Below, piece by piece: positions 4,768-25,124 of a stretch of 32,000 nt of DNA; position 1 is the stretch's first letter, and the number at the start of each line of letters is the position of its first letter. The DNA is taken from contig NC_013849.1 of NCBI RefSeq assembly GCF_000025505.1, forward strand, positions 2,130,001-2,162,000, in the 5' to 3' direction. The position numbers and the translations under genes are program-made. The notes below the pieces were generated by a model that did no database searches, was not told the DNA's origin, and worked only from the letters and a program-made list of their open reading frames with translations. The DNA is from Ferroglobus placidus DSM 10642. Its GTDB lineage: Archaea > Halobacteriota > Archaeoglobi > Archaeoglobales > Archaeoglobaceae.

Positions 4768-6072
4768 ATGGAGGAAATGAGCTGGGCTGACTGGGCGAGG
4801 GAGAATACCGATCCGAGGAAAGCTCACCTAAAGCCGGAAGCTCTTGAAGATGTAGTCGTCCTCGACCTCAGCTACGGGAGTTTTGCCGGATTGTACGCTT
4901 CCTCTCTTTTAGCCGAGTACGGAGCTAAGGTAATAAGAATAGAGCCTCCGGAGGGAGATATAGCCAGAAAAATGACTCCCTTCGGGATAAAGCACAAAGA
5001 CACCGGTTTGGCTTACATAGTTGAAGGGAGGAACAAGTACCACATAACCCTCGACATAACTAAGGAGAAGGGAAGGAAGTTGCTCAAAAAACTCGTTAAA
5101 AAGGCTGACGTGCTGATAGAAACTTATCCCCCCGGCTACATGGACGAGCTCGGAATTGGCTACAGACAGCTGAGAAAGATAAATCCGCAGCTGATTTACT
5201 GTGCCATCCACAGCTTCGGACACTTCGGACCTAAAGCAAAGACGAAGATGAGGGACTACGATGTAATCGATCAGGCGATGGGCGGAATAGTGTGGACTAC
5301 CGGCATTCCGGAGGACTACGAGGAGTATCCAGAACACACGAGGGTTCCGACAAAGCTTGGAAACTGGATGGGGTGGTATGTAGGAGGAGGATTTGCCGCT
5401 TTCGGCATAATGGTAGCTTTGTTCTGGAGGAGGAAGAGCGGTAAGGGGCAGTTCATAGACGTCGCTCCTCCCGAGGCTATGGCGAAGGTGACGAACTACT
5501 ACATCCAGTACTACCACTACAGGAGGAAAGTCATAAACAGGGTTGCGAACTTCGACCCGGCTGTTTTCGTCTACACTTTAGCGAGAGCCAAGGATGGAAT
5601 GGTGTTCATGGCTGGGTTCAGCGACATAAACTTCTACGCCTTAACGCAGATAATAGGAAGACCTGATCTGAGGGAAAAGTATCCGACGATAAGGGAAAGG
5701 CTAACTCCGGAAAACTGGCCGGTTTGTCTGGCTGAGATAGAAAAGTGGAGCAGGGAAAGGACGGTGAAGGAGATAATCGATGCATTCTTGGCGTACAAGG
5801 GTGAAGGAACCGCCGTGGCTGGAGAGGTGCTTAAGCCGATAGAAACTTTCAAAGTTGAGAACTGGTGGGACAGGGGAATATTCCAGGAGATAGATGATCC
5901 AGAGTACGGAAAGCTTGTAGTACAAAGCGTAGTTGCGAAGTTCGAAAAAACTCCCGGAAGGATAAAGTGGGTCTGCAGAAGGGTTGGAGCCGACAACGAC
6001 TACATCTACAAGGAGTTCTTAGGTCTGAACAAGAGCGATTTGGAGGAGTTGAAGAAGGAAGGAGTTATCTAA
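4768..6072 (+). CDS. Family III CoA-transferase (CaiB/BaiF/Frc/alpha-methylacyl-CoA racemase family)
   Basis: It is collinear with the upstream paralog (VLDLSY..AG, GAKVIRIEPP, GIGYRQLRKINPQLIYC, YDVIDQAMGG). SD GAGGTGG precedes ATG 4768, overlapping the upstream stop at 4756-4758. Confidence 0.88.
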   Translation: MEEMSWADWARENTDPRKAHLKPEALEDVVVLDLSYGSFAGLYASSLLAEYGAKVIRIEPPEGDIARKMTPFGIKHKDTGLAYIVEGRNKYHITLDITKEKGRKLLKKLVKKADVLIETYPPGYMDELGIGYRQLRKINPQLIYCAIHSFGHFGPKAKTKMRDYDVIDQAMGGIVWTTGIPEDYEEYPEHTRVPTKLGNWMGWYVGGGFAAFGIMVALFWRRKSGKGQFIDVAPPEAMAKVTNYYIQYYHYRRKVINRVANFDPAVFVYTLARAKDGMVFMAGFSDINFYALTQIIGRPDLREKYPTIRERLTPENWPVCLAEIEKWSRERTVKEIIDAFLAYKGEGTAVAGEVLKPIETFKVENWWDRGIFQEIDDPEYGKLVVQSVVAKFEKTPGRIKWVCRRVGADNDYIYKEFLGLNKSDLEELKKEGVI

Positions 6073-7420
6073 CCTCCCTATTTTTTATGTTTTCTGCAGC
6101 AAGCACGAGCGAAGACACTATCAAAGCGTACACTCCGTAAAGCATCACTCCGGCAAGTTTGAATACGATCGCAGCTACAAATCCGGCAGCTATCGAAGCT
6201 CTCGCTCTTTTAATTCTCTCCGAAAAAACTCCGAGCGTGGCTGGGAGCAGGCAGAGGAGAATTGCCGAAGACATGACGGAAAGCTCGACTATGTAGCTAA
6301 GCCTGAAGTAGGCGAAGATTCCGACGATCACGGATAAGATTACCACGAAAATTTTTCCGTAGAAAACTCCCTCTTCCCTTAGAATGTCCCTCGAAATCAT
6401 CGATGCCAAGCTCAGAATTATGGAGTTTGCCGTCGTTATTGCAGCGGCTAAAATGCTTAGAGCTATAATCAATCCAGCATACTCTGGAATTTTGGTGATG
6501 AATACCGGAGTTACGTCGTCTCTGTAGCTAATCTCGGGAAAGTTTCCTTGGACGGTTGCTATTTTCAGAGTTATTCCCATGAAGGTTACGATAAAGGTGT
6601 AAATCAATCCGAAGAGTCCGAAGAGTACGACCATCCTCTTCAAATCTTTCTCAGACTTCGGAATGAAAACTCTCTGCACAACCTGCGGATTCGTTAAAGC
6701 GAAGAAGAACCACGGAACGGTCAGAGCGATGAATCTTTCGACCGTCCAAATTTTGTTCGGAACTTGAAGCAGAGAGCCGAGAGAAGAAGATTCTTCGAGA
6801 ACGTTTCCCTCAACAAAATTTAAAGCTAAGGCTAAAGCTAAAAAGCCGGCTAAAAGCATAATCACTCCTTGGACAGCATCCGTCCAAGCGACTCCCCTCA
6901 AACCACCTATCAAAGCCCAGAAGGCTATGAGGAAGACTGAAATAACCAAAGCGTTTTGAAAAGTCAAGCCGACGGTTTTTTCTAAAATCAACGAAACTCC
7001 GATGATTTGGGCGGAGGTGTAGGGAATAAGAGCTACAACCGGAATGAGGGAAGCGAGAATTCCCTCAGCTTTGCCGTACTTCTTAGATAACATTTCAGCT
7101 GGAGTGACGACTCCGTTCTCTTTTGCGAACCTCCACATCTTCGGAGCGAAATAGGAGAGGAGGAAGAGAGTACCGACTAAGTAGAAGAGTTCGAAAGCAG
7201 CTGCTCCCACGCCGGTGGCGTAGCTTAAGCCAACCAACCCGACCATCATAAAAGCCGAATATGTTGTTGCGGCATATGTTAAAGCCGATACAACTCCGCT
7301 CACGTTTCTGCCGGCTATGAAGTATTCCTCGTGAGTTCTGAACCCGTATTTTCTTGAGTAGATCGCTAAGGCTGTTCCGGCAATAATGTAAGCGATTAGA
7401 AGGATGTAAAAGCTATTCAA
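6065..7420 (-). CDS. Sodium:solute symporter family (SSF; PutP/PanF/MctP-like) transporter
   Basis: A 451-aa polytopic membrane protein with a typical SSF N-terminus (EEYFIAGRNVSG..SAFMMVG). The TTG start at 7420 is preceded by strong SD AGGAGGTG (complement of 7426-7433). Confidence 0.85.
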   Translation of the reverse strand: MNSFYILLIAYIIAGTALAIYSRKYGFRTHEEYFIAGRNVSGVVSALTYAATTYSAFMMVGLVGLSYATGVGAAAFELFYLVGTLFLLSYFAPKMWRFAKENGVVTPAEMLSKKYGKAEGILASLIPVVALIPYTSAQIIGVSLILEKTVGLTFQNALVISVFLIAFWALIGGLRGVAWTDAVQGVIMLLAGFLALALALNFVEGNVLEESSSLGSLLQVPNKIWTVERFIALTVPWFFFALTNPQVVQRVFIPKSEKDLKRMVVLFGLFGLIYTFIVTFMGITLKIATVQGNFPEISYRDDVTPVFITKIPEYAGLIIALSILAAAITTANSIILSLASMISRDILREEGVFYGKIFVVILSVIVGIFAYFRLSYIVELSVMSSAILLCLLPATLGVFSERIKRARASIAAGFVAAIVFKLAGVMLYGVYALIVSSLVLAAENIKNREVR

Positions 7421-7562
7421 CTTCCCACCTCCTTATCGAGATGTAGAGGAGGTAGAGAGCCGTCACAGCGAACCAGTAGAAGTAAGCTGTAAGGTCGTTG
7501 CTTTTTAGCGAGATGAAAGGCAATAGCATCGCCAACAGAACGATAACTATGTCTATCCTCAT
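7413..7562 (-). CDS. 49-aa two-helix membrane micro-protein, candidate SSF accessory subunit (DUF3311/YhdT-like by context)
   Basis: Hand translation gives MRIDIVIVLLAMLLPFISLKSNDLTAYFYWFAVTALYLLYISIRRWEVE. Its ATG overlaps the upstream stop (ATGA) and its 3' end overlaps the SSF TTG start by 8 nt. It is below the track's length cutoff. Confidence 0.55.
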   Translation of the reverse strand: MRIDIVIVLLAMLLPFISLKSNDLTAYFYWFAVTALYLLYISIRRWEVE

Positions 7563-8095
7563 CGAACACGTGTTCGGTTACTCTGTTTATAAACTTTTTC
7601 GAACTCCTTAGAAAGTCTTCTTATCCGGAGGAGAAATGGAATTACGCTCAGCAGTAGCGTTACAATAACCAAATTGAACCACCACGGCAGCTCTCCCGTT
7701 TTTGATCCCAAATATATCCCCAAAGTTAGCAGATAAAAGCAGAAGGTCAAAAAAGCGTTCAAAGCATCAATAGAGTTGAAATAGCTGTTGACGAAGCGTT
7801 CTCTTTCGTTCTCCGGGAGGAAGTTTAACTTGGAAAAGAACGCTGGCAAGTTCATCCACCATACTGTTCCTTTCAAAACCTCACTCCTCTTACTTGAGAT
7901 TACGAGAAGTATAACTGGTGCAAAACTAAACGACAGCGGAAGAAGTAAGAAGATAATTTTCCCTCCGTACGAATCAGCTTTCCCGCTCGCGTTGAAGTGG
8001 ACTGGAACCCTTTCGGGCAGCGTAGAGTATGCGTAAATGGACGTGACCCAGATTAGCACGAGAAGTAAAACCACTACGAGCTGAAAACTTCTCAT
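7559..8095 (-). CDS. DUF1648-type (SdpI-like) membrane protein
   Basis: The motif LPERVPVHFNASGKADSYG follows the first TM helix, as is typical of DUF1648. There are four predicted TM segments. I prefer ATG 8095 (MRSFQLVV) to the track start at 8119. Confidence 0.7.
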   Translation of the reverse strand: MRSFQLVVVLLLVLIWVTSIYAYSTLPERVPVHFNASGKADSYGGKIIFLLLPLSFSFAPVILLVISSKRSEVLKGTVWWMNLPAFFSKLNFLPENERERFVNSYFNSIDALNAFLTFCFYLLTLGIYLGSKTGELPWWFNLVIVTLLLSVIPFLLRIRRLSKEFEKVYKQSNRTRVR

Positions 8096-8118
8096 TGAAT
8101 ATTCTTGACACAGACACA

Positions 8119-8128
8119 TTTATTTATT
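8119..8128. promoter_or_regulatory. Shared bidirectional TATA-like element TTTATTTATT
   Basis: It is centred about 28 nt from both divergent start codons (8095 minus strand, 8151 plus strand). Neither start has an SD, which fits two leaderless transcripts from one A/T element. Confidence 0.45.
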
Positions 8129-8150: not shown

Positions 8151-9083
8151 ATGAAGCTTCTGACGATAGGGGCTGGTAAAGCTGCAAACATCGTCGACGT
8201 ATTTGCTAAGAGGGGAGCTGAGGTTAACAAAGCAAAGCTTTTCAAATGCTACACTGTAAGCAACGAGCTTGAAGAGCTTAAAAAGTTGAGGAGCGTCCCG
8301 CAGGAAAATAGATTTTACGCCGTATGGAAAGAGGATCTTCCGGATTTGAGAAGCGTGATAAACAGCATAATGTCGAGATACGAGATTTACGAAGCATCCC
8401 TCGTTGTAACGGACTTAACCGACGACTTCAGCTTTTTTTCCTCAATTTCCCTCTTCGACGAGCTTGAGAGGAGTATGGAGGAGCCGAAGCTTTGTTTAGC
8501 TTTAATTCCGGATTTGTCTAATCCGGAAAAAATAGAGAAGGTTAGGAGGGGTCTGAGAACGCTCATGAAAACCTACGACTTCCTTTTCGTTTTCGAAAAG
8601 AGGAACAACTACGAGGATCTCATAGTCGATTCTTTCAACACGCTATCTCTCGTAGGAGAAATAGACGCGAGGAAAAAAACGAGCGGAGAAGTTGTTGTGG
8701 ACACGAGCGACTTTCTGAATTCCCTCGACAGAGAAGGTTTCACGATTCTCGGCTATTCGAAGAGAAAGATAAGCTTATTTTCGAGGATATTCAAGAGCGA
8801 TGCTGAGCTGAGGGGGGAGAGAACCAAGAGGATGGTCGATCTTCTCGAGGAATCTCTCTCAAATCTGAGTGCGAGAGGCGACATCGACTCAGCAAAAAAG
8901 GCTCTGATAGTTTTCTCCGGAAACCCCGAGGAGATAAGCATGGAAGGTCTTTTCACCTGCATAAAAAGGGTGGAGAAGATAAGCGGGGAGATGCTTGTAA
9001 GATACGGCGATTACCCCATTCCGAGGTCGAATTTCGTCAGCTCGGTAGTTTTATTTTCGGGAATTAAAAAATTCACGTTATGA
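8151..9083 (+). CDS. Hypothetical protein; FtsZ/tubulin-fold-like with degenerate GTP-binding motifs
   Basis: It is collinear by eye with FtsZ over the full length. Examples: KLLTIGAGKAANIV vs GVGGGGxNAV, VVTDLTDDFSF vs ITAGMGGGTGTG, VVVDTSDF..GFTILGYS vs INVDFADV..GxAxMGIG, and ALIVFSG..VVLFSGIK vs GVLINITG..VTVIATGF. The glycine-rich signatures are absent. Confidence 0.5.
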   Translation: MKLLTIGAGKAANIVDVFAKRGAEVNKAKLFKCYTVSNELEELKKLRSVPQENRFYAVWKEDLPDLRSVINSIMSRYEIYEASLVVTDLTDDFSFFSSISLFDELERSMEEPKLCLALIPDLSNPEKIEKVRRGLRTLMKTYDFLFVFEKRNNYEDLIVDSFNTLSLVGEIDARKKTSGEVVVDTSDFLNSLDREGFTILGYSKRKISLFSRIFKSDAELRGERTKRMVDLLEESLSNLSARGDIDSAKKALIVFSGNPEEISMEGLFTCIKRVEKISGEMLVRYGDYPIPRSNFVSSVVLFSGIKKFTL

Positions 9084-9930
9084 TTCTCGCTCCCCCTTCT
9101 TCAACAACTACCGTATGCTCCGCTTGAGAAACCAATCCGCCAGAGATTTCAGTCAAAACCGGATAGCTCCTCAAAATCTTTTCTCTGACGAGCTTTGCCA
9201 GAATTATTTCGGGAGCCTTCGTCAACCATCTCTTAGCGAAAGGGAGAGTTTTGTACTTCTCTATCTCTTTTAAAATTTCCCTCTCAATTCTCCCCCTAAC
9301 TGGTTTCTGCTTCAGGAGAGAGTATATCTCAACTTCGCTCCTCTCCGCCACTTTCCCTACTCCGTCGGTTACGAAAGGCTCGATAGCTATCACCGTTCCC
9401 TCTTCGAGCTTCACTCCCTTCTCTATTCCGTAGTTGTATATCGTCGGAGGGGCGTGAGCTACGTAGGGCAAAAATCCGTGTCCGGTCAGATTTATCACCG
9501 GCTTAAATCCGAACTCCTTTACCGTTTCTTCTATAACTCTTCCAATTTCGCTCGTCGAAACTCCAGCCTCTACTACTTCTATCGCCCTCTTCAAAGCCTC
9601 CTCTGCAGCTTTAACGAGGTCTTCGTTGTCTCCTAAATCGATTGTGAAGGCTGTGTCGGCTATGTATCCGTCCACGTGGGCGCCTATGTCTATCTTCACG
9701 AGGTCTCCTTCTTTGAAAGTTCTCTCATCGTTCTTTTTTGGCGTGCAGTGGGCAGCGTCGGAGTTTATCGAAATGTTGCAGGGAAATGCCGGCTCAGCGC
9801 CGAGCTCTCTAATTCTGTTTTCGACGAACTCCGCAACTTCCAAAAGCTTTACGCCCGGCTTAACTTTTTCTTTTACTTCCTCTCTGACTTTCCTCAAAAT
9901 TTCTCCAGCTTTCTCGTGCTTTTCGATCAA
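9073..9930 (-). CDS. map: Methionine aminopeptidase, type 2 (archaeal)
   Basis: M24A blocks are present: AFPCNISINSDAAHCTP, KIDIGAHVDGYIADTA, GHG, IEPF, AEHTV. The TTG start at 9930 is preceded by SD GAGGTGAT and overlaps the upstream stop (TTGA). Confidence 0.92.
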   Translation of the reverse strand: MIEKHEKAGEILRKVREEVKEKVKPGVKLLEVAEFVENRIRELGAEPAFPCNISINSDAAHCTPKKNDERTFKEGDLVKIDIGAHVDGYIADTAFTIDLGDNEDLVKAAEEALKRAIEVVEAGVSTSEIGRVIEETVKEFGFKPVINLTGHGFLPYVAHAPPTIYNYGIEKGVKLEEGTVIAIEPFVTDGVGKVAERSEVEIYSLLKQKPVRGRIEREILKEIEKYKTLPFAKRWLTKAPEIILAKLVREKILRSYPVLTEISGGLVSQAEHTVVVEEGGARIIT

Positions 9931-11030
9931 GGTATCACCTCTACGTAATCGCTAAATTTAGTTAAGACCTCACATCCGTTCTTTTTCACGAGAATCAGAT
10001 CTTCGACTCTAACCCCTCCCACTTTTTCGTAATACAGCCCCGGTTCCACCGTGAACACCATCCCGGATTTTAATTTCTCTTCAGAATTAAATATTTTCGG
10101 CTCTTCGTGCACTTCCAAACCCACTCCATGTCCTGTGGAGTGAATGAATCCCTCCTTAGCCTTCTGCCTTATAGTTTTATAGCCGTAGCTCTCCAAGACG
10201 TCGCAAACTTTATCGTGAATCTCTTTCGCTTCGACTCCTTCCTTAATTATTTTAATAGCTTCGTTCTTCGCCTCTACGCACGCCTTCAGCATTTCTGCTA
10301 TTTCTTCATCTTTCTCGATAATTACCGTCCTCGTAAAGTCTGAATAGTATCCGCTATCTCTGATCTTCGGAAAAATATCGAATATCACGTGCTTCTCTAT
10401 AATTCCCTCTCCCACGAAGTGGGGGTCTGCGCTTCTTTTTCCGGAAGTTATTATCGTATCTTCAGCCAACGCCCCTTTTTCGTAAACGAAAAGCTCTACC
10501 TTTCTCCTCAGCTCTTCAACTCTTCTCTCCTTTTTTACGATTTCGAGGAAGAATTTTAGAGCGTTCAAAGCTATTTCGCTCGCTTTTTTTATCTCTTTTA
10601 TCTCCCAAGACTTTTTAACGCTTCTCAGCTTCGAAAACGGGTTCGAGACTATCTCGATTTCGAAATGCTCTGAGAGTTGCTTGTACAAAAAGCTTGGAAA
10701 TTCCTTCGGCACGAGAATTTTTCTCGCTCTGTGCTCTTTCAAAATTTCAGCGTAAGTTTCCGCAAGAGCCTTTTCAACTCCAAGCTCCTTGACTTTCTCG
10801 TAAAATCCCACGTCAGATAACGAGACTATTTCCTTAACTCTGCTTTCCCTCTCAGCCCTCCTCCTCTCCATTTCGTGGACGACGAGAATTTCTGTGCCGT
10901 CCTCTCCTATTGCGTAAAAGGCTGGATCCGGAAGTTTCATACTCACTGCATAATAAAAATTCGGATCTTTACTGCTCGCATACATGACGAAAAAGTCCGC
11001 TTTATGCTTTTCCAGCAGTTCGTATATCAT
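9927..11030 (-). CDS. M24B-family Xaa-Pro aminopeptidase / prolidase (PepQ/PepP-like)
   Basis: C-terminal pita-bread domain motifs are present: DFTRT, HSTGHGVGLEVHEEP, FTVEPGLY, VRVEDLILV. I prefer ATG 11030 (MIYELLEKH) to TTG 11045. Confidence 0.88.
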   Translation of the reverse strand: MIYELLEKHKADFFVMYASSKDPNFYYAVSMKLPDPAFYAIGEDGTEILVVHEMERRRAERESRVKEIVSLSDVGFYEKVKELGVEKALAETYAEILKEHRARKILVPKEFPSFLYKQLSEHFEIEIVSNPFSKLRSVKKSWEIKEIKKASEIALNALKFFLEIVKKERRVEELRRKVELFVYEKGALAEDTIITSGKRSADPHFVGEGIIEKHVIFDIFPKIRDSGYYSDFTRTVIIEKDEEIAEMLKACVEAKNEAIKIIKEGVEAKEIHDKVCDVLESYGYKTIRQKAKEGFIHSTGHGVGLEVHEEPKIFNSEEKLKSGMVFTVEPGLYYEKVGGVRVEDLILVKKNGCEVLTKFSDYVEVIP

Positions 11031-11049
11031 GTGGCAAGAAGGCAAAGAA

Positions 11050-23700: not shown

Positions 23701-24201
23701 ATGAAAACCGAGGGGAATTTAAAAGCTGCTTTCGCCGGAGAGAGTCAGGCGCACGTCAAATACTTAATTTTTGCAGAGCTGGCAAGAGAAAAGGGATTGA
23801 GAAATCTCGCAAGGGTTTTCGAAGCCTTCGCTTTTTCAGAGTTCGTCCACGCGAAAAACCACTTCAAAAACTTAGAAAGCGTTGAAGACCCGGTAAAAGC
23901 TCTCGACGAAGCGATTAAGGGAGAGACTTACGAAGTGGAAGAGATGTATCCGAAGTTCTACGAGGAAGCAATAAAGGAAAAGGAGAAGAAAGCTGCCACG
24001 TCCTTTAGGTGGGCGATGGAAACGGAGAAAAAGCATGCAGAGATTTACAAAGAGTTGAAAATACTTGTCGAAAGCGGGAGAGACAAAGCTTACGACAAGA
24101 AAATCTACGTTTGCCCGGTTTGCGGATACATCTTCGTCGAAACACCTCCGGACGTCTGTCCTATTTGCAGCGTCGGAAAAGAGAAGTTCAAAGAGTTTTA
24201 G
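23701..24201 (+). CDS. rbr: Rubrerythrin (second paralog)
   Basis: It contains [20 protein letters not shown] and the C-terminal CPVCGY...CPICS. Confidence 0.9.
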   Translation: MKTEGNLKAAFAGESQAHVKYLIFAELAREKGLRNLARVFEAFAFSEFVHAKNHFKNLESVEDPVKALDEAIKGETYEVEEMYPKFYEEAIKEKEKKAATSFRWAMETEKKHAEIYKELKILVESGRDKAYDKKIYVCPVCGYIFVETPPDVCPICSVGKEKFKEF

Positions 24202-24214
24202 CACCCAAAATTAA

Positions 24215-24220
24215 TTTTTT
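24215..24220 (+). terminator. Oligo-T tract (T6) downstream of the rubrerythrin cluster
   Basis: The T6 run lies 14 nt after stop 24201. Archaeal intrinsic terminators are oligo-T tracts. No hairpin is required or seen. Confidence 0.25.
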
Positions 24221-24239
24221 GGAATAGATTGGCAGGCTT

Positions 24240-24905
24240 TTAACGTTCTTTCTTTTTCATTTGCTTATCGAGTTCTTCCAGAATTAATCGAAGAATCTGT
24301 TCCCAAAATCTATTGTTGGACAGCACATTCCAAATTGCTTGAGTTTTTTTAAAAAAAGGATATTCCAGATTATTCCTTTTGTTCATATCATCGAGCTTCT
24401 CGTTCAGAATTTTAAGGAATTTCTTTTCGCGTTTCACTTCTTTGCTTAATCTTTCGTCAAATTTCGGATGTTCCATTATTAATCTCCAATCTGGCTCTTC
24501 CGATTCAAAGGCTTTCAATGTTATTTCGAGGAGGAGAACCTCATTTTTACGGAGCACTTGTTTAAATTCATCTTGATGTGCGGATACTACTTTCATTAGG
24601 TCAATTAGGGATTTTTTAACTGCAATAAACTCCCGTTCAATGCGATTTACTACCTTTTCAGCCATTTTTTCGGGATCTGATGGTTCAATAACACTGCTGA
24701 CTACTGACATGCCCAGAGCGGTGGAGAACGCCTCATAAAACCGATCAAATGATTCCAATGCTCGATTAAGTGGCTTTTCAATAGCTAATGCTAAATCCTT
24801 TTTCAACTGATTTTTGGCTGTTATATCTTTTATCTTACCGATAAGCCAGACAACAGTTGGGAGTATATTGAAAGCTATGTCGAGCAAACTACTGCCACCT
24901 CTCAA
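24240..24905 (-). CDS. Hypothetical protein (orphan-like, predicted all-helical, hydrophobic N-terminal segment)
   Basis: A 221-codon ORF is maintained in a visibly AT-rich stretch where stops should be frequent. I recognise no family motif. It has a TTG start and no internal ATG near the N-terminus. Confidence 0.55.
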   Translation of the reverse strand: MRGGSSLLDIAFNILPTVVWLIGKIKDITAKNQLKKDLALAIEKPLNRALESFDRFYEAFSTALGMSVVSSVIEPSDPEKMAEKVVNRIEREFIAVKKSLIDLMKVVSAHQDEFKQVLRKNEVLLLEITLKAFESEEPDWRLIMEHPKFDERLSKEVKREKKFLKILNEKLDDMNKRNNLEYPFFKKTQAIWNVLSNNRFWEQILRLILEELDKQMKKKER

Positions 24906-25015
24906 AAATAAGTCTCGTCAACGAAAATATAAATTTTCACTCAATTTTCATTTGTGCATCATCCAAGATTACACCAAAACTTTCATAAGCAAATTTAAAT
25001 AAAACATTTATCGCT

Positions 25016-25097
25016 GCCGGGGTTGCAGAGAGGCACTGCGCCGGCCTTGAGAGCCGGTGCCCGCAAGGGCTCCTGGGTTCAAGTCCCAGCCCCGGCG
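25016..25097 (+). tRNA. tRNA-Ser (anticodon UGA), class II, no encoded CCA
   Basis: Hand-folded cloverleaf: acceptor GCCGGGG/CCCCGGC, D stem GCAG/CTGC, anticodon stem CCGGC/GCCGG. The anticodon loop is CTTGAGA, the 15-nt variable arm has a GCCC/GGGC stem, the T arm is CTGGG-TTCAAGT-CCCAG, and the discriminator is G. Confidence 0.93.
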
Positions 25098-25124
25098 CTC
25101 TTCTCAAAGGTTTAAGTCTCATGT

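Follow-up and report, generated by a model that had tools for sequence, protein, structure and literature searches.

The DNA analysed here, which we call the window, is a 32,000-nucleotide stretch of Ferroglobus placidus DSM 10642 (NC_013849.1, positions 2,130,001 to 2,162,000 of the forward strand); coordinates are those of the window unless another locus is named. Our subject is the gene Ferp_2493 (FERP_RS12465, UniProt D3S2A9, arCOG02202/COG0206). It is a genuine open reading frame (ORF) at 8151..9083 on the plus strand, with an ATG start and 310 codons plus a stop, and its translation is the sequence quoted in a preliminary description of this DNA. The product has a 100% database match to the F. 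placidus DSM 10642 entry P0001, named 'conserved hypothetical protein', and its eggNOG text reads 'Involved in cell shape control'. CetZ proteins are the archaeal branch of the tubulin superfamily and control cell shape and motility in haloarchaea. We are confident that Ferp_2493 encodes a CetZ-family pseudo-GTPase that is kept under selection. The features of the gene are as follows.

8151..9083, plus strand: complete ORF, CetZ-family predicted pseudo-GTPase Ferp_2493 / D3S2A9 (ORF list, database match, Table S2 of the survey cited below)
8151..8615, plus strand: N-domain, residues 1-155, Rossmann-like former GTPase domain (hhalign column match to the CetZ GTPase domain)
8169..8189, plus strand: T1 remnant GAGKAAN, residues 7-13, canonical GxGQAGGK (alignments, column statistics)
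8322..8327, plus strand: V58/W59 junction, where the T3 loop is deleted (alignments A2 and A3, hhalign)
8412..8438, plus strand: T4 position, DLTDDFSFF, residues 88-96, against canonical GLGGGTGSG (phmmer, alignments A2 and A3)
8595..8606, plus strand: site of the T6/H6 deletion, residues 149-152, FVFE-KRN (alignments A2 and A3)
8616..9080, plus strand: CetZ_C domain, residues 156-310 (Pfam PF21011)
8685..8711, plus strand: T7 loop GEVVVDTSD, residues 179-187 (alignment to 4B46 with chain numbering)
8997..9017, plus strand: VRYGDYP, residues 283-289, common to canonical CetZ VR[GA]GDYP (alignments, column statistics)

By both sequence and structure, Ferp_2493 is a tubulin/FtsZ-fold protein closest to CetZ, not to FtsZ. 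Its sole Pfam domain is CetZ_C (PF21011) at residues 156-307, with an expectation value (E) of 2.9e-23 and 82.7 bits against a cutoff of 21.6. Neither Pfam FtsZ_C nor any NCBIfam model matches the protein, and Pfam Tubulin (PF00091) is absent even at E up to 10. Searching PDB sequences with phmmer (E up to 10) returned CetZ1 (4B46, E 1.8e-18, residues 58-306) and CetZ2 (4B45, E 7.6e-9), both from Haloferax volcanii; the third and last match, a C-type lectin at E 1.4, was not significant. The AlphaFold2 model, built with 26 orthologues, had a predicted local distance difference test score (pLDDT) of 89.1 and a predicted template modelling score (pTM) of 0.88, and residues 170-183 alone were modelled poorly. 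When that model was compared with the PDB by Foldseek, CetZ1 4B46 came first (E 6.9e-21, template modelling score 0.78) and CetZ2 second (8.2e-18), and the best FtsZ stood behind both (3.5e-16). Methanosaeta CetZ 3ZID, TubZ and tubulins were also matched. The best 50 PDB matches were all CetZ, FtsZ, TubZ or tubulin, with no unrelated Rossmann family among them. Aligned by hhalign with 15 canonical CetZs, the family profile gave a probability of 99.95% and an E of 9e-38 over 308 columns. AlphaFold2, Foldseek and hhalign each show the two-domain tubulin/FtsZ fold, with its Rossmann-like N-domain, helix H7 and C-domain.

The preliminary description had matched the protein to FtsZ by eye from end to end, and each of its segment matches was reproduced by phmmer, MAFFT, hhalign and AlphaFold2 with Foldseek. 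The outcomes it had named as contrary to its case were a missing tubulin-fold match or a better-scoring unrelated Rossmann family, and neither appeared in the profile or Foldseek searches. Its choice of FtsZ as nearest family gives way to CetZ, given the CetZ_C domain and the best sequence and structure matches, CetZ1 and CetZ2. The family was also less of a stranger than supposed. Besides its arCOG02202 membership and its place among CetZs in the published tree, D3S2A9 is entered as 'CetZ - Non-haloarchaea' in Table S2 of Brown & Duggin 2023 (PMC9856176), where the range NC_013849.1 2118151-2159083 is the 933-bp gene Ferp_2493 with 20 kb on either side. The labels 'cell division GTPase FtsZ' and 'cell division protein' carried by some family genes are misleading annotation.

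We compared nucleotide-binding motifs in MAFFT alignments (A2 and A3) with canonical tubulin-superfamily proteins and took column statistics over 81 full-length homologues. As the preliminary description had read it, GLGGGTGSG aligns with DLTDDFSFF, and the tubulin signature G-box, [SAG]GGTG[ST]G, occurs in 0 of the 81. The family consensus at T4 is S-L-[DE]-D-[ED]-F-G, with D, E or N at position 91 in 79 sequences and D or E at position 92 in 74; the G-box is replaced in 81/81, and the acidic replacement, written family-wide, is S/D-L-x-D-[DE]-F-[GS]. Such acidic residues would be expected to repel phosphate. About 20 residues are gone at T3, where canonical CetZ has GETxVKGHGVGxDNxLG. At T6/H6 the DN motif and about 17 further residues of canonical CetZ are gone in crown Archaeoglobales and kept in basal relatives; the secondary structure of the AlphaFold2 model has no H6. 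T1 is a mixed case: its glycines G7 and G9 are invariant, and the loop reads GxGxRGx in most Archaeoglobaceae and GxGGAGx in basal members, with a one-residue deletion in the Ferroglobus/Geoglobus clade. The protein ends ...LFSGIKKFTL directly after its last strand, without H11 or a C-terminal tail, whereas canonical CetZs run 40-80 residues further.

T7 is the opposite of these losses. Positions 180, 182 and 184-186 are invariant and positions 179, 181 and 187 at least 98% conserved, D187 being present in 80 of the 81 sequences. D184 and D187 are the counterparts of both acidic residues in the FtsZ/CetZ synergy loop, and D187 aligns with CetZ1 E218, reportedly the site changed in CetZ1.E218A, a GTPase-deficient mutant described by Duggin et al. 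2015. The best-conserved ten-residue block of the family, 181-190 (top-residue frequency 0.89), covers T7 and H8. The loop is CetZ-type (VVDTSD), not FtsZ-type NxDxxD, and the family block GEVVVDTSDvfNaL can be set against GEMVVDSSEvINTL in canonical CetZ of Archaeoglobales. A GPPEE..G motif in the C-domain, like VRYGDYP, is also common to canonical CetZ. The earlier claim that every GTP-binding signature had been erased thus holds for T3, T4 and T6, holds in part for T1 and fails for T7; its degenerate pocket stands, and the outright deletions at T3 and H6/T6 and the loss of the tail had gone unnoticed.

Outside the classical motifs, G22, N26, L30 and F31 (8214-8243) and N163 (8637-8639) are at least 95% conserved in the family and occupy variable positions in canonical CetZ. 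The G22-x3-N26-x3-L30-F31 pattern falls within H1-S2, a segment involved in lateral contacts in tubulin.

With its fold kept, its nucleotide motifs lost and its sequence under purifying selection, Ferp_2493 has the hallmarks of a pseudoenzyme, and we predict that it has lost binding of guanosine triphosphate (GTP). We consider it very unlikely that the protein is still a GTPase, or binds some other nucleotide, through a non-canonical pocket, as an ordinary divergent CetZ; this is the position implicit in the published survey. A phosphate-binding G-box that is now acidic, deletion of the gamma-phosphate sensor T3 and of the base-contacting T6/H7 region, and the missing Pfam Tubulin match all speak against it, as does the faster evolution of the N-domain relative to the C-domain, opposite to the pattern in canonical CetZ. 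It does have in its favor the invariant T1 glycines, an Asn near the T2 position that is common in the family, and the classification of the protein as a CetZ in PMC9856176.

The family is confined to Archaeoglobi. A word-indexed search found 79 homologues of 278-318 amino acids (all but one at least 296), each with CetZ_C as sole domain and all bearing Archaeoglobales organism names. Scanning 1.84 billion cluster representatives with HMMER gave about six family representatives at 329-137 bits, four of them full-length at 329-184 bits; after a gap came a 96-bit family fragment, and canonical CetZs scored no more than 71 bits. When one genome for each GTDB species was scanned, 75 loci were recovered, titled Ferroglobus, Geoglobus, Archaeoglobus, Archaeoglobaceae, Archaeoglobales, Archaeoglobi or 'uncultured archaeon'. 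The exception to these titles was a 2.9-kb contig (L077, DQSS01000174.1) binned as Arcobacter sp., which carries a 40%-identity pseudo-CetZ; it is probably a binning error rather than a bacterial occurrence.

Intact ORFs of about 300-340 amino acids were found in nearly all 75 loci, with L079 and the contig-truncated L077 partial. For unsaturated pairs of close orthologues, the Nei-Gojobori ratio of non-synonymous to synonymous change (dN/dS) was 0.02-0.08 (N-domain 0.008-0.12, C-domain 0-0.13). Because dN/dS is low in both halves, the protein is not a relic. Catalytic motifs have been lost and the sequence is diverging quickly, as a decaying, non-functional remnant of a duplicated cetZ would lead one to expect. 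We nonetheless find that explanation scarcely credible, with intact ORFs in nearly all loci and in all 81 full-length database proteins, dN/dS values that contradict decay, and a conserved promoter-like element.

Rates of change are asymmetric. Across the same species pairs, canonical CetZ is 83-89% identical and the Ferp_2493 family 42-66%. The GTPase domain is the more conserved half of canonical CetZ (86-92% vs 81-84%), whereas the former GTPase domain is the less conserved half of the Ferp_2493 family (34-61% vs 50-72%). This reversed order is what would be expected once nucleotide binding stops constraining the N-domain.

Ferp_2493 stands apart from its neighbors, which are listed here with its putative promoter.

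6065-7420, minus strand: sodium:solute symporter, upstream, divergent
7559-8119, minus strand: DUF1648 membrane protein, upstream, divergent
8119-8128, plus strand: TATA-like box TTTATTTATT, centred about 27 nt before the ATG (read from sequence)
9073-9930, minus strand: methionine aminopeptidase, downstream, convergent
9927-11045, minus strand: M24B peptidase, downstream, convergent

No co-oriented gene adjoins Ferp_2493, and no Shine-Dalgarno-like sequence lies between TTTATTTATT and its ATG. The position of the box, together with this absence, suggests a leaderless transcript, and a TATA-like box stands at the same distance in most orthologous loci. As far as such evidence goes, the monocistron with a leaderless TATA promoter of its own and a divergent upstream gene, as given in the preliminary description, is borne out. 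The 3' ends of Ferp_2493 and the methionine aminopeptidase gene overlap by 11 nt (9073-9083), leaving no intergenic terminator region. On the other side, the listed DUF1648 start (ATG at 8119) abuts the TATA-like box. A start eight codons downstream, at the in-frame ATG near 8095 (MRSFQLVV...), seems more plausible and would leave a 55-nt divergent promoter region.

Gene neighborhoods are unconserved beyond the genus. M24 peptidases lie downstream in 24/79 loci (map) and 22/79 loci (Xaa-Pro), TruA lies downstream in the three Archaeoglobus loci with inspected gene calls (L002-L004), and the upstream genes vary. Elsewhere in the window, the kilobase 24001-25000 has the lowest GC content (0.372 vs about 0.45); it lies directly upstream of tRNA-Ser(UGA) at 25016-25098 and holds a 221-residue ORF at 24240-24905 on the minus strand. 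One possible reading of this stretch is a small segment of integrated or foreign DNA next to the tRNA gene.

Each of F. placidus, A. veneficus, A. fulgidus and G. acetivorans has four tubulin-superfamily proteins, which in F. placidus are FtsZ1, FtsZ2, one 'Halobacteria-like' CetZ and the Ferp_2493 product (Table S1, PMC9856176). A canonical CetZ was present alongside the pseudo-CetZ in every named isolate that we checked. Searching with the canonical CetZ of a basal lineage (L081) recovered the orthologues of A. veneficus, A. fulgidus, G. acetivorans, G. ahangari and A. sulfaticallidus; the F. placidus protein itself was not among the 120 matches listed. The canonical CetZs of A. veneficus, A. 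fulgidus, G. acetivorans and G. ahangari retain T7 and all of their GTP motifs. These proteins are 385-394 amino acids long and 24% identical to Ferp_2493 (A. veneficus P0355, A. fulgidus P0398, G. acetivorans P0437). As a separate observation, a C-terminal peptide, LFDEDIEPL[IFV], is strongly conserved in canonical Archaeoglobales CetZs (P0348-P0467) and recalls the adaptor-binding C-terminal peptide of FtsZ.

Two uncultured basal lineages have the genes side by side and co-oriented, pseudo-CetZ first and canonical cetZ directly downstream.

L081, 6424-7410: pseudo-CetZ
L081, 7796-8947, same strand: canonical cetZ
L082/L083, 4834-5853: pseudo-CetZ
L082/L083, 6001-7152, same strand: canonical cetZ

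The pair is kept between both lineages while the pseudo-CetZ falls to 56% identity and the canonical CetZ stays at 88%. The basal pseudo-CetZs are the most divergent members of the family, at about 36% identity to Ferp_2493, and the canonical CetZs beside them are about 70-75% identical to those of Archaeoglobaceae. They have SLESDF[GS] at the G-box and no tail, and they keep the T1 form GxGGAGxN, a FEN motif and H6/H7. In Pfam, the L083 pseudo-CetZ still matches Tubulin (37.7 bits vs a 33-bit cutoff), and P0082, from the L081 lineage, falls below threshold. The order of loss appears to have been the G-box and tail, then T3 and H6/T6 in crown Archaeoglobales, then the T1 residue in Ferroglobus and Geoglobus.

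In both basal lineages the tandem pair is followed by another conserved gene on the plus strand (L083:7164-8327 and L081:9325-10281), with 58-63% identity between the lineages. Its product of about 387 residues has an N-terminal hydrophobic or signal segment, a long coiled coil and a C-terminal transmembrane helix, and ends GGGGRWDELR. It matches no Pfam family and has no homologue in the window or the other 79 loci; it could be a membrane partner of CetZ.

Whether the pseudo-CetZ arose by recent duplication of the canonical CetZ of Archaeoglobi was judged by sequence similarity, the branch being long. On that measure a recent duplication is unsupported. The best BLAST matches outside the family are relatives of P0089, the closest canonical match, and do not include the canonical CetZ of Archaeoglobi. 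With P0089 as the query, a homology search yielded CetZs mostly of the Hydrothermarchaeales type, none bearing an Archaeoglobales name. The clusters of ten other canonical matches had members named as Nitrososphaerales and Thermococci. Many of the HMMER matches were proteins of 500-950 residues (P0086-P0088, P0095, P0097, P0101 and others) with an N-terminal Tubulin + CetZ_C module, followed in P0086, P0087 and P0097 by 170-580 residues without a Pfam domain. They may be the long 'CetZ cluster' proteins of Methanomicrobiales; the M. hungatei entry in the survey spans about 3.1 kb (PMC9856176).

Subunits of FtsZ-type polymers carry the nucleotide on their top face, where the active site is completed by T7 of the next subunit up. 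Longitudinal contacts in FtsZ and in tubulin are made in large part by T3 and H6/T6. In FtsZ, the GTP held by the lower subunit is hydrolysed by the upper one (PMC11239868). The pseudo-CetZ retains T7 under its strongest constraint, which fits a one-sided subunit better than an inert look-alike. Its partner is more likely to be the canonical CetZ encoded in the same genome than FtsZ, because T7/H8 is CetZ-like and a canonical cetZ adjoins the gene in the basal lineages. We suggest, giving it somewhat less than an even chance, that Ferp_2493 is a pseudo-GTPase subunit that docks by T7 on GTP-bound canonical CetZ and so ends or tunes the filament.

The steps would be these. The Ferp_2493 product would bind no GTP and would offer no canonical top face to another subunit. 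Its T7 face would dock on the GTP-bearing top face of a canonical CetZ; since the top face of the pseudo-CetZ varies between sub-lineages and the bottom stays canonical-like, the bottom face may well still recognize that surface. D184 and D187 would then complete the active site of the canonical subunit below. With no further subunit able to add on top, the protofilament would end, and the pseudo-CetZ would serve as a cap, terminating or GTPase-activating, through which CetZ filament length or turnover is set. Lacking a tail, it would be untethered from whatever binds the C-terminal peptide of canonical CetZ. In its full form the proposal is that a natural 'one-sided' CetZ paralogue caps the GTP-exposing filament end and fires the terminal GTPase, making a system of a polymer and its homologous terminator; this we regard as possible rather than probable. 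A filament regulator was also among the roles put forward in the preliminary description, and it is our best reading as well, as a proposal.

The same T7 face could serve self-assembly. In a nucleotide-independent homopolymer, T7 would sit on the remodelled top face of the next subunit, where the acidic T4 would mimic the phosphates of GTP, and the result would be a static filament. Conservation of the acidic pair 91-92 and of the T7 face, purifying selection on the N-domain and the isolation of the gene in crown Archaeoglobales would all suit such a polymer. A self-interface should co-vary on both sides, and the top face shifts between sub-lineages (the T1 deletion, H6/T6) while T7/H8 stays near-identical to canonical CetZ. 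The longitudinal contact elements T3 and H6/T6 are absent, and a polymer that does not hydrolyse would need neither of the acidic T7 residues. We judge a homopolymer unlikely.

We give as little credit to a monomeric scaffold or adaptor, repurposed away from tubulin-family filaments, whose new surfaces (G22-x3-N26-x3-L30-F31, N163) would bind unrelated partners. This would leave unexplained why the block common to canonical CetZ (T7/H8, EITMDG, VRYGDYP) is the best conserved, why the catalytic acids are invariant, and why the gene adjoins a canonical cetZ in basal lineages. It would make sense of the family-specific invariant residues outside the classical motifs, of the strong purifying selection on the N-domain, and of the lack of any linked cytoskeletal gene in crown Archaeoglobales.

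Several points weigh against a one-sided subunit acting on canonical CetZ. We found no canonical cetZ within 6-8 kb in any of 79 loci; the two genes are unlinked in crown Archaeoglobales, and in one metagenome-assembled genome they lie on different contigs (L046 and L084, with a common accession prefix). Guilt by association fails in the crown group, where the neighbors are uninformative on function. Conservation of the acidic T4 pair, together with purifying selection on the N-domain, leaves room for a separate function of the remodelled top face. The poorly modelled residues 170-183 lead into T7. Our comparisons with canonical CetZ used orthologues from other genera in place of the F. placidus protein. 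A division of labor like that of alpha/beta-tubulin, with a complementary loss of T7 in the partner, was considered and rejected, because the canonical Archaeoglobales CetZ retains GEMVVDSSE and its GTP motifs. A cap at that end could either stabilize or destabilize the filament, depending on the kinetic polarity of CetZ.

The survey treats both Archaeoglobales CetZs as possible 'functional pairs', compares their M-loops and implicitly regards both as GTPases; its text says nothing of a missing GTP site (PMC9856176). Santana-Molina et al. make no mention of a pocket-less CetZ group, and full-text searches of the literature, by accession or by terms for a pseudo-GTPase or the tubulin signature combined with CetZ, turned up no account of the lost pocket. 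The gene is thus on record as a CetZ; the loss of its pocket appears to be unreported. With one of the pair having lost its pocket in every member and kept the loop that acts in trans, the 'functional pair' becomes a concrete biochemical hypothesis. The T7-only architecture and the tandem ancestral arrangement are noteworthy and directly testable. If the proposal is true, polymer regulators can evolve from the polymer's own subunit, and prokaryotes would have their first described case of a natural pseudo-tubulin that regulates filaments. The protein could also be used as a natural tool for capping CetZ filament ends. A further implication would be an independent case of paralogue asymmetry in a tubulin-like polymer, distantly recalling the division of labor between alpha- and beta-tubulin.

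The closest known structures are those of CetZ1 and CetZ2 of Haloferax volcanii (4B46 and 4B45), with which Ferp_2493 shares collinear domains, CetZ_C, T7 (VVDSSE vs VVDTSD), the VRGGDYP motif and arCOG02202. Unlike them, it has no G-box, T3, H6/T6, C-terminal helix or tail, or Pfam Tubulin match. By their entry titles, CetZ1 and CetZ2 were crystallised with guanosine diphosphate (GDP) and GTP-gamma-S, whereas Ferp_2493 is a predicted non-binder. The canonical CetZ of Archaeoglobales co-occurs with the pseudo-CetZ in these genomes, shares its fold and has a very similar T7/H8, but it differs in its intact GTP motifs, its tail peptide and its slower evolution.

Among archaeal homologues without the motif, the nearest precedent is Nmar_1262 of Nitrosopumilus maritimus, an FtsZ-like protein with AGKAGSA in place of GGGTGTG that formed no polymer in yeast (PMC3684127). 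It belongs to a different lineage and subfamily and is reported also to lack T7 (PMC3684127), the best-conserved element of the Ferp_2493 family. In function, the nearest analogy, and only that, is plant ARC3, in which an FtsZ-derived domain acts on canonical FtsZ filaments. ARC3 combines an FtsZ-like domain with a MORN domain, directly inhibits Z-ring assembly and is reported to raise the GTPase activity of FtsZ2. It differs in being eukaryotic, multidomain and FtsZ- rather than CetZ-derived, and the two have no relation beyond the superfamily.

For the proposed mode of action, the comparison is with factors that block one end only of FtsZ filaments. Top-face mutants such as E. coli FtsZ L178E reportedly behave in this way, in work ascribed to Du et al. 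(2018, in PNAS). Blocking of one polar filament end, with altered turnover, is described for interface mutants and for non-homologous end-cappers such as MipZ (PMC5414002 and PMC9897490). Those FtsZ end-blockers are laboratory mutants or unrelated folds, whereas the pseudo-CetZ would be a naturally evolved, genome-encoded one-sided subunit.

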